From assembly GCF_003790525.1 (NCBI RefSeq), contig NZ_CP033635.1: 64,000 nucleotides of DNA; one strand, 5' to 3'. Position numbers and translations under genes: made by a program. This stretch comes from Escherichia coli (GTDB lineage: Bacteria > Pseudomonadota > Gammaproteobacteria > Enterobacterales > Enterobacteriaceae). The notes under the pieces were generated by a model. It did not search any database and was not told the DNA's origin. It saw nothing but the letters and a program-made list of their open reading frames with translations. This document shows, one piece after another, positions 62,458 through 63,288 of the stretch; within the stretch, counting starts at the first letter, position 1, and each line of letters starts with the position of its first letter.

Positions 62458-63288
62458 ATGTTTGTTCCGTTTCTCATTATGTTGCGCGAAGGACTTGAAG
62501 CCGCGCTGATTGTCAGTTTGATTGCCAGCTATCTTAAGCGTACCCAGCGAGGCCGATGGATTGGTGTGATGTGGATTGGCGTGTTGCTTGCCGCTGCGTT
62601 GTGCCTGGGCTTGGGTATCTTCATTAACGAAACCACCGGCGAATTTCCGCAAAAAGAACAGGAACTGTTTGAAGGTATCGTGGCGGTGATCGCCGTGGTG
62701 ATCCTTACCTGGATGGTTTTCTGGATGCGCAAAGTGTCGCGCAACGTCAAAGTACAACTGGAGCAGGCAGTCGACAGCGCATTGCAGCGTGGAAATCATC
62801 ATGGCTGGGCGCTGGTGATGATGGTCTTTTTTGCCGTTGCAAGGGAGGGGCTGGAGTCGGTCTTTTTCCTGCTGGCGGCGTTTCAACAAGATGTCGGGAT
62901 CTGGCCGCCGCTGGGTGCAATGCTCGGTCTTGCTACAGCCGTGGTGCTCGGCTTCCTGCTCTACTGGGGCGGTATTCGCCTCAATCTTGGTGCATTTTTT
63001 AAATGGACCAGCCTGTTTATTCTCTTCGTCGCCGCAGGGCTGGCGGCTGGTGCCATTCGCGCATTTCATGAAGCCGGATTGTGGAACCACTTTCAGGAAA
63101 TCGCCTTCGATATGAGTGCGGTGCTCTCAACTCACTCGCTGTTTGGCACGCTGATGGAAGGGATTTTTGGCTATCAGGAAGCGCCGAGTGTCAGCGAAGT
63201 CGCCGTCTGGTTTATTTATCTCATCCCGGCGCTGGTGGCATTTGTTCTGCCACCACGCGCAGGGGCGACTGCGTCCCGCTCCGTGTAG
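62458..63288 (+). CDS. efeU: Ferrous-iron permease EfeU (intact)
   Basis: 276 aa from MFVPFLIMLREGLEAALIVSL; FTR1-type REGLE motifs (REGLEAAL, REGLESVF); uninterrupted, unlike the frameshifted K-12 allele. Confidence 0.9.
   Translation: MFVPFLIMLREGLEAALIVSLIASYLKRTQRGRWIGVMWIGVLLAAALCLGLGIFINETTGEFPQKEQELFEGIVAVIAVVILTWMVFWMRKVSRNVKVQLEQAVDSALQRGNHHGWALVMMVFFAVAREGLESVFFLLAAFQQDVGIWPPLGAMLGLATAVVLGFLLYWGGIRLNLGAFFKWTSLFILFVAAGLAAGAIRAFHEAGLWNHFQEIAFDMSAVLSTHSLFGTLMEGIFGYQEAPSVSEVAVWFIYLIPALVAFVLPPRAGATASRSV

Follow-up and report, generated by a model that had tools for sequence, protein, structure and literature searches.

In Escherichia coli K-12 the gene efeU, first of the efeUOB operon, is cryptic, while in other E. 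coli it is intact and functional; this is already known and has been textbook knowledge since 2006–2007. A copy of efeU lies close to the right end of the 64-kb stretch of E. coli DNA analysed here (the window). It raises the questions of whether that copy is intact, whether it belongs to a working operon, and whether its condition or that of K-12 is the usual one in the species. The evidence set out below makes it very probable that efeU is here a normal wild-type E. coli gene, the first of efeUOB, in a strain all but identical to SMS-3-5.

The efeU coding sequence (nt 62458–63288, plus strand) consists of 276 codons and a stop; it starts with ATG and has no internal stops in the ORF list or the translation. 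The product matches the Pfam family FTR1 (PF03239) over residues 1–275 (E = 3e-89; 299.5 bits against a cut-off of 25.3) and exceeds the curated cut-offs of both the NCBIfam equivalog for EfeU (NF041756; 331.4 bits, cut-off 255) and the EfeU/Ftr1 subfamily (TIGR00145; 349.4 bits, cut-off 303.8). Its length is that of the O157:H7 and Nissle 1917 orthologues, with the frame open throughout. A regular-expression scan of the translation placed the two REGLE (REXXE) motifs at residues 10–14 (nt 62485–62499, plus strand) and 129–133 (nt 62842–62856, plus strand). An earlier note on this DNA had described a continuous permease of 276 aa carrying both motifs, and that description holds; a re-reading of nt 62458–63288 gave neither a frameshift nor a premature stop. 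Direct reading also shows a Shine-Dalgarno-like AAGGG (nt 62445–62449, plus strand) 8 nt 5′ of the ATG. An in-frame GTG at nt 62449, which would give a protein of 279 aa, was rejected because the profiles and all orthologues begin at the ATG (nt 62458), the start that RefSeq/PGAP also uses in the identical gene of SMS-3-5. A 215-aa ORF on the opposite strand (nt 62443–63090, minus strand) was dismissed as a shadow ORF, such as usually accompanies a gene with strong support.

Hydropathy analysis of EfeU (Kyte-Doolittle, 19-aa averaging window, threshold 1.6) returned six clear segments, and the REGLE-bearing span at about residues 115–140, the expected fourth, fell below the threshold. The six segments and the REGLE span together are compatible with, and not proof of, the published seven-span topology model (PMC9174327). 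A search of the PDB with the EfeU sequence returned no solved EfeU/Ftr1 homologues.

Pairwise alignment with K-12 MG1655, in which efeU is annotated as pseudogene b4490, revealed a single indel within the gene. Codon 36 contains the dinucleotide GG in the window (nt 62562–62563, plus strand) and a single G in K-12. Three-frame translation of the pseudogene showed that the K-12 frame (MFVPF...RGRWIV*) therefore ends after 36 residues, with the remainder of the protein in another frame. The earlier note had called efeU of K-12 a frameshifted pseudogene, and this comparison of the two regions bears it out. A single-base deletion in codon 36 of the K-12 gene is described in PMC3577903 and also agrees with PMC2808357. 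When the G is restored, the K-12 protein is identical to EfeU of O157:H7 and differs from that of the window by two residues (V263A and V276A).

Over its 64 kb the window shares 99.99% identity with the E. coli SMS-3-5 chromosome (NC_010498.1), from which it departs by three substitutions and one single-base deletion. There are no differences within nt 56240–64000, so that the last 7.7 kb or so, including efeU, are 100% identical. The substitutions relative to the RefSeq sequence lie at nt 9852 (G/A), 45049 (C/T) and 49094 (T/A), so that the window represents a near-identical strain or assembly rather than that sequence itself.

The frequency of the two alleles was assessed among complete E. 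coli genomes. Of 5,426 such genomes, 5,417 contain the efeU region, and in at least 25 independent ones it is 100% identical to that of the window. A probe of 69 nt carrying the K-12 deletion, for which a match of at least 99% is an exact match at that length, hit 368 records, at most two of them partial, which corresponds to about 366 of 5,382 complete genomes (approximately 7%). Five carriers of the K-12 allele were sampled (ER1709, AML003, J53, a culture named 'K-12', and a human isolate of 4.6 Mb in which efeU is annotated as frameshifted). All five have genomes of K-12 size and four are named laboratory derivatives; most of the genomes with this allele are evidently of that kind. The corresponding 70-nt probe for the window allele around codon 36 matched exactly in 3,614 genomes, and most of the others differ from it by substitutions only. 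One K-12-like genome, BHUCD01 (NZ_CM183442.1, 4.64 Mb; excerpt 1429–2259), has an intact efeU despite a 542-bp putP–efeU spacer of the K-12 type and the PutP and EfeO proteins of K-12; its EfeU is identical to that of O157:H7. This genome may belong to a near relative of K-12 from nature or to a revertant, or may reflect an effect of assembly, and its intact gene fits a recent lesion specific to the K-12 lineage.

Intact efeU is the norm of the species and the frameshift is a peculiarity of the K-12 lineage. The earlier note had taken K-12 as the reference and this strain as the distinct one; with the K-12 allele in about 7% of complete genomes, that framing is inverted. What is added here to existing knowledge is the count of the K-12 allele among some 5,400 complete genomes and the recognition that the window represents the ordinary wild-type state. 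Like most natural E. coli, the strain should have a low-pH route for ferrous iron that is absent from K-12, and K-12 is therefore unsuitable as the reference state for the efeU locus.

The earlier note had also seen in efeU, the defective rutA and the absent gfc locus a pattern of gene decay and retention distinct from that of K-12. That the rutA gene is defective and the gfc locus missing proved correct; as a pattern of the lineage the claim fared less well, as the rutA lesion occurs in none of the genomes with which it was compared. The rutA gene is split by a one-base deletion, one A being absent from the run at nt 54772–54775 by comparison with SMS-3-5 and K-12, and is left as two ORFs (nt 54747–55469 and 54289–54867, minus strand). 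This segment occurs in 5,103 complete E. coli genomes, none of which has the deletion allele, and the RefSeq sequence of SMS-3-5 lacks the allele too. Either a mutation private to this sequence or a sequencing error in the homopolymer may account for it, and its absence from every other complete genome makes it weak evidence for a pattern of the lineage; lineage-wide decay of rutA was accordingly dropped as an explanation. The etk-etp-gfcEDCBA block is missing between appA and cspH, where 9,055 bp of K-12 (nt 1041907–1050961, comprising the last 9 nt of appA, etk, etp, gfcE–A and IS1D) are replaced by 7 nt (nt 32558–32564 of the window). As a result the 3′ end of appA is slightly different and, in the SMS-3-5 annotation, overlaps cspH.

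Three further loci may be recorded. The torS gene (approximately nt 35037–37780, minus strand) is labelled 'frameshifted' by PGAP in SMS-3-5, and in the window 909 of 914 residues align in one frame to TorS of K-12; the one-base indel affects only about the last five codons and is probably harmless. In the divergent putA–putP control region, PGAP annotates an ORF of 69 aa (nt 60362–60571, plus strand) as hypothetical in SMS-3-5 and Nissle, where the K-12 annotation has only the 8-aa ymdG; the ORF is likely an over-call. Beyond efeB, outside the window, the SMS-3-5 chromosome (excerpt 10132–13121) carries phoH followed by a DUF2726 gene, tRNA-Ser and ghrA. At this position K-12 has pgaDCBA, the PGA biofilm locus, which the lineage of SMS-3-5 therefore appears to lack here.

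The second gene of the operon, efeO, follows efeU directly, as the earlier note had stated. It starts at nt 63346, 57 nt past the efeU stop codon, and runs on the same strand to the end of the window (nt 63346–64000), which thus contains the first 218 of its 375 codons. These specify a Sec signal peptide, a cupredoxin domain (Cupredoxin_1, 3.4e-25) and the start of an M75/imelysin domain (Peptidase_M75, 1.6e-13), and the partial protein matches the NCBIfam model for EfeO (PRK10378) with 431 bits over model positions 1–218 of 375. Over all 218 aa present it is identical to EfeO of SMS-3-5. The third gene, efeB, is outside the window, and its status was read from the 99.99% identical SMS-3-5 chromosome. 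There efeU (276 aa), efeO (375 aa) and efeB (423 aa) are all annotated as intact, and EfeB shows the twin-arginine (Tat) motif SRRRLLK. Since the window holds only 218 of the 375 efeO codons and no efeB, the completeness of the operon therefore rests on SMS-3-5 as a proxy.

Upstream of efeU lies putP (nt 60730–62238, plus strand; annotation, and 1143 bits to the NCBIfam PutP equivalog), a separate transcription unit. The spacer between the two genes is 219 bp long with a G+C content of 38%. A terminator scan identified a strong intrinsic terminator of putP, with a 13-bp stem and a T-run (nt 62283–62311, plus strand), which bounds the regulatory region of efeU on its upstream side. An Rfam scan of nt 62000–63500 found no known RNA element; matches to snoZ152 (23 bits, threshold 50) and DapZ (21 bits, threshold 56) are at chance level, and the sub-threshold DapZ match overlies the putP terminator.

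A Fur box, CGTAATGATAATCGATATC, is located at nt 62380–62398 (plus strand) and agrees at 15 of 19 positions with the 19-bp consensus GATAATGATAATCATTATC. It is the sole match of at least 15/19 to the consensus on either strand of the 64 kb, and when the spacer was shuffled 5,000 times with its dinucleotides preserved, a score as high came up 13 times. The same consensus scan picked out a weaker Fur-like sequence, CATCATTATCAC (nt 62339–62357; 12/19), which on its own is not above chance. It is one of several overlapping matches of 11–12/19, found at nt 62333–62357 and 62374–62404, the latter group at offsets of 6 bp (nt 62374 and 62386) around the Fur box. Singly these are not significant; together they fit the nature of Fur sites as hexamer arrays. 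The range of nt 62341–62400, in which Fur-box-like sequences had been pointed out, is accordingly right, with the 15/19 box and the weaker matches about it.

Directly downstream of the Fur box, a CpxR-like box (GCAAA-N5-GTAAA; nt 62406–62420, minus strand) has one mismatch to GTAAA-N5-GTAAA. As its score was equalled in 153 of 5,000 shuffles of the spacer (3%), it is from sequence alone only suggestive, and we put it forward as a predicted CpxR site for efeU. In an alignment of four lineages (the window, Nissle 1917, K-12 and O157:H7), about 135 bp before the efeU ATG are conserved, and within them the CpxR-like box and the Fur core are invariant save for position 62394. That position is A in the window and SMS-3-5 and C in Nissle 1917, K-12 and O157:H7; the consensus has T, so both are mismatches. 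Repression of efeU by Fur has been published (PMC3577903, PMC4145685), and negative control by CpxR is given in a table of PMC9600279, which cites Cao 2007.

A consensus scan for sigma-70 promoters gave one candidate, TTTACA-18-TACATT (nt 62330–62359, plus strand; 9/12), where 0.5 would be expected, which is no better than chance. An alternative found by eye, TTGTAT-16-GATAAT (nt 62364–62369 and 62386–62391, plus strand), overlaps the Fur box. If this were the promoter, the Fur box would enclose its −10 element and the transcription start would come shortly before the CpxR-like box, as would be predicted for two repressors.

Three unrelated forms of the putP–efeU spacer exist in E. coli. From some 135 bp ahead of the start codon of efeU they agree, and beyond approximately −135 the distal part (nt 62239–62325 of the window) diverges completely. 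The 219-bp form was found in 1,016 genomes at an identity of at least 99% and in 190 at lower identity, giving 1,206 of 5,426, including Nissle 1917 and ST131. In this form no more than about 70 bp separate the putP terminator from the Fur box. To our knowledge, all published work on the efeU promoter has been done on the K-12 and O157:H7 arrangements. Because the 219-bp spacer has neither the TRIP1b/REP sequences found in K-12 nor the additional gene found in O157:H7, and has A at nt 62394, regulation of efeUOB by Fur and CpxR or by read-through might be quantitatively different from that in K-12 and O157:H7, which we consider improbable.

Taken together, the intact efeU gene supports the prediction of a working EfeUOB system. 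EfeU is an inner-membrane iron permease of the Ftr1 type, in which the two REXXE motifs accompany a predicted seven or so membrane spans, and would work on ferrous iron together with two periplasmic proteins, the Sec-exported EfeO (cupredoxin and M75 domains) and the Tat-exported EfeB, a haem peroxidase of the DyP type. Fe2+ in the periplasm would be handled by EfeO and EfeB and then pass through EfeU by way of the REXXE motifs, a route that would matter mainly under aerobic, acidic and iron-poor conditions. Fe2+-Fur would repress transcription of efeU through the box at nt 62380–62398, and iron limitation would relieve that repression; phospho-CpxR may likewise repress through the putative site at nt 62406–62420, and acidity may relieve it. 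Activity in transport, the substrate, the effect of pH and the binding of the regulators are inferred from the literature on the system (among it Cao et al. 2007; Grosse et al. 2006). In particular, near-identity to tested alleles (PMC3577903) makes Fe2+ uptake at low pH the expected activity of this EfeU. The functional EfeUOB system predicted in the earlier note agrees with the intact efeU, the matches above curated cut-offs and the near-identity to tested alleles; the part of the prediction that concerns the other two genes goes beyond the window, in which efeO is partial and from which efeB is absent.

The one live rival, which concerns the substrate and not the identity of the gene, accepts an intact operon and gives it another main task than the uptake of free Fe2+ at low pH, namely the extraction of iron from haem in the periplasm by deferrochelation (EfeB/EfeO), with EfeU importing the iron released. 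We consider it a rather unlikely account of the main function; in its favour, RefSeq names EfeB 'deferrochelatase/peroxidase'. The ferrous specificity that Cao et al. 2007 reportedly found in 55Fe assays argues against it. Wandersman's group showed that the EfeUOB system of O157:H7 can free haem iron in the periplasm and then import it (PMC3577903), and the preferred iron source of the system is stated there to be undetermined; the same paper also has it that Fe2+ uptake in acidic medium needs a complete EfeU. One role does not rule out the other, and the sequence does not discriminate between them.

Far less probable is a system that is non-functional here in spite of an intact efeU, through damage to efeB or to the part of efeO beyond the window, or through an upstream spacer that silences the promoter. 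The window does stop at codon 218 of efeO, private lesions do occur in this sequence, as the one-base deletion in rutA relative to RefSeq SMS-3-5 indicates, and more than about 135 bp upstream of efeU the putP–efeU spacer is unlike those of K-12 and O157:H7. Against these points, efeO and efeB are intact in SMS-3-5, to which the last 7.7 kb of the window are 100% identical, and the same 219-bp spacer, with four substitutions, precedes a functional EfeU in Nissle 1917 and occurs in 1,206 genomes in all. That the intactness of efeU is itself an artefact of assembly or sequencing, for example an extra G called in the GG of codon 36, borders on the negligible. The A-run of rutA does show one difference in homopolymer length from RefSeq SMS-3-5 elsewhere in the window, but the efeU region is identical in at least 25 independent complete genomes and the 70 nt around codon 36 in 3,614. 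The preferred reading thus remains that of an ordinary wild-type efeU heading an efeUOB operon that is predicted to work.

Among known systems, efeUOB of O157:H7 has the same gene order, efeU-efeO-efeB, and its first gene encodes an EfeU (YcdN) of 276 aa with both REGLE motifs that is identical to the window protein at 274 of 276 positions, the exceptions being A263 and A276 there and V263 and V276 here. Upstream of its ATG, a stretch of 135 bp that takes in the Fur box and the CpxR-like box agrees with the window apart from a few substitutions, whereas the putP–efeU spacer is 2.67 kb long in O157:H7 and includes an additional ORF of 447 aa, compared with 219 bp here. EfeU of Nissle 1917 also has 276 aa and is likewise identical at 274 of 276 positions (I8 and M276 there, M8 and V276 here), and this strain shares the short 219-bp spacer with four substitutions. 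The O157:H7 protein was reportedly found to be functional, with a ferrous specificity in 55Fe assays, by Cao et al. 2007 (Mol Microbiol 65:857), and that of Nissle 1917 is said to have been found functional by Grosse et al. 2006 (Mol Microbiol 62:120). The first of these studies is cited in PMC3577903 and PMC9600279 and the second in PMC2808357 and PMC10888264, with PMC4746246 as a further source of citations; the proteins of these two strains are the ones that the literature shows to be functional (PMC3577903, PMC2808357). In K-12 MG1655, b4490 also lies between putP and efeO, and its DNA is 98.1% identical to the window from nt 62355 onward, with a spacer of 542 bp that contains a TRIP1b repeat and a REP element (PMC10888264). 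A more distant counterpart is Ftr1p of Saccharomyces cerevisiae (PF03239, OFeT family), which has about 25% similarity to EfeU (PMC3577903); the FTR1 profile matches over the full length, and two REXXE motifs in predicted membrane spans are shared. The partners differ, that of Ftr1p in yeast being the multicopper oxidase Fet3p and those of the bacterial permease being EfeO, with its cupredoxin and M75 domains, and the DyP peroxidase EfeB.
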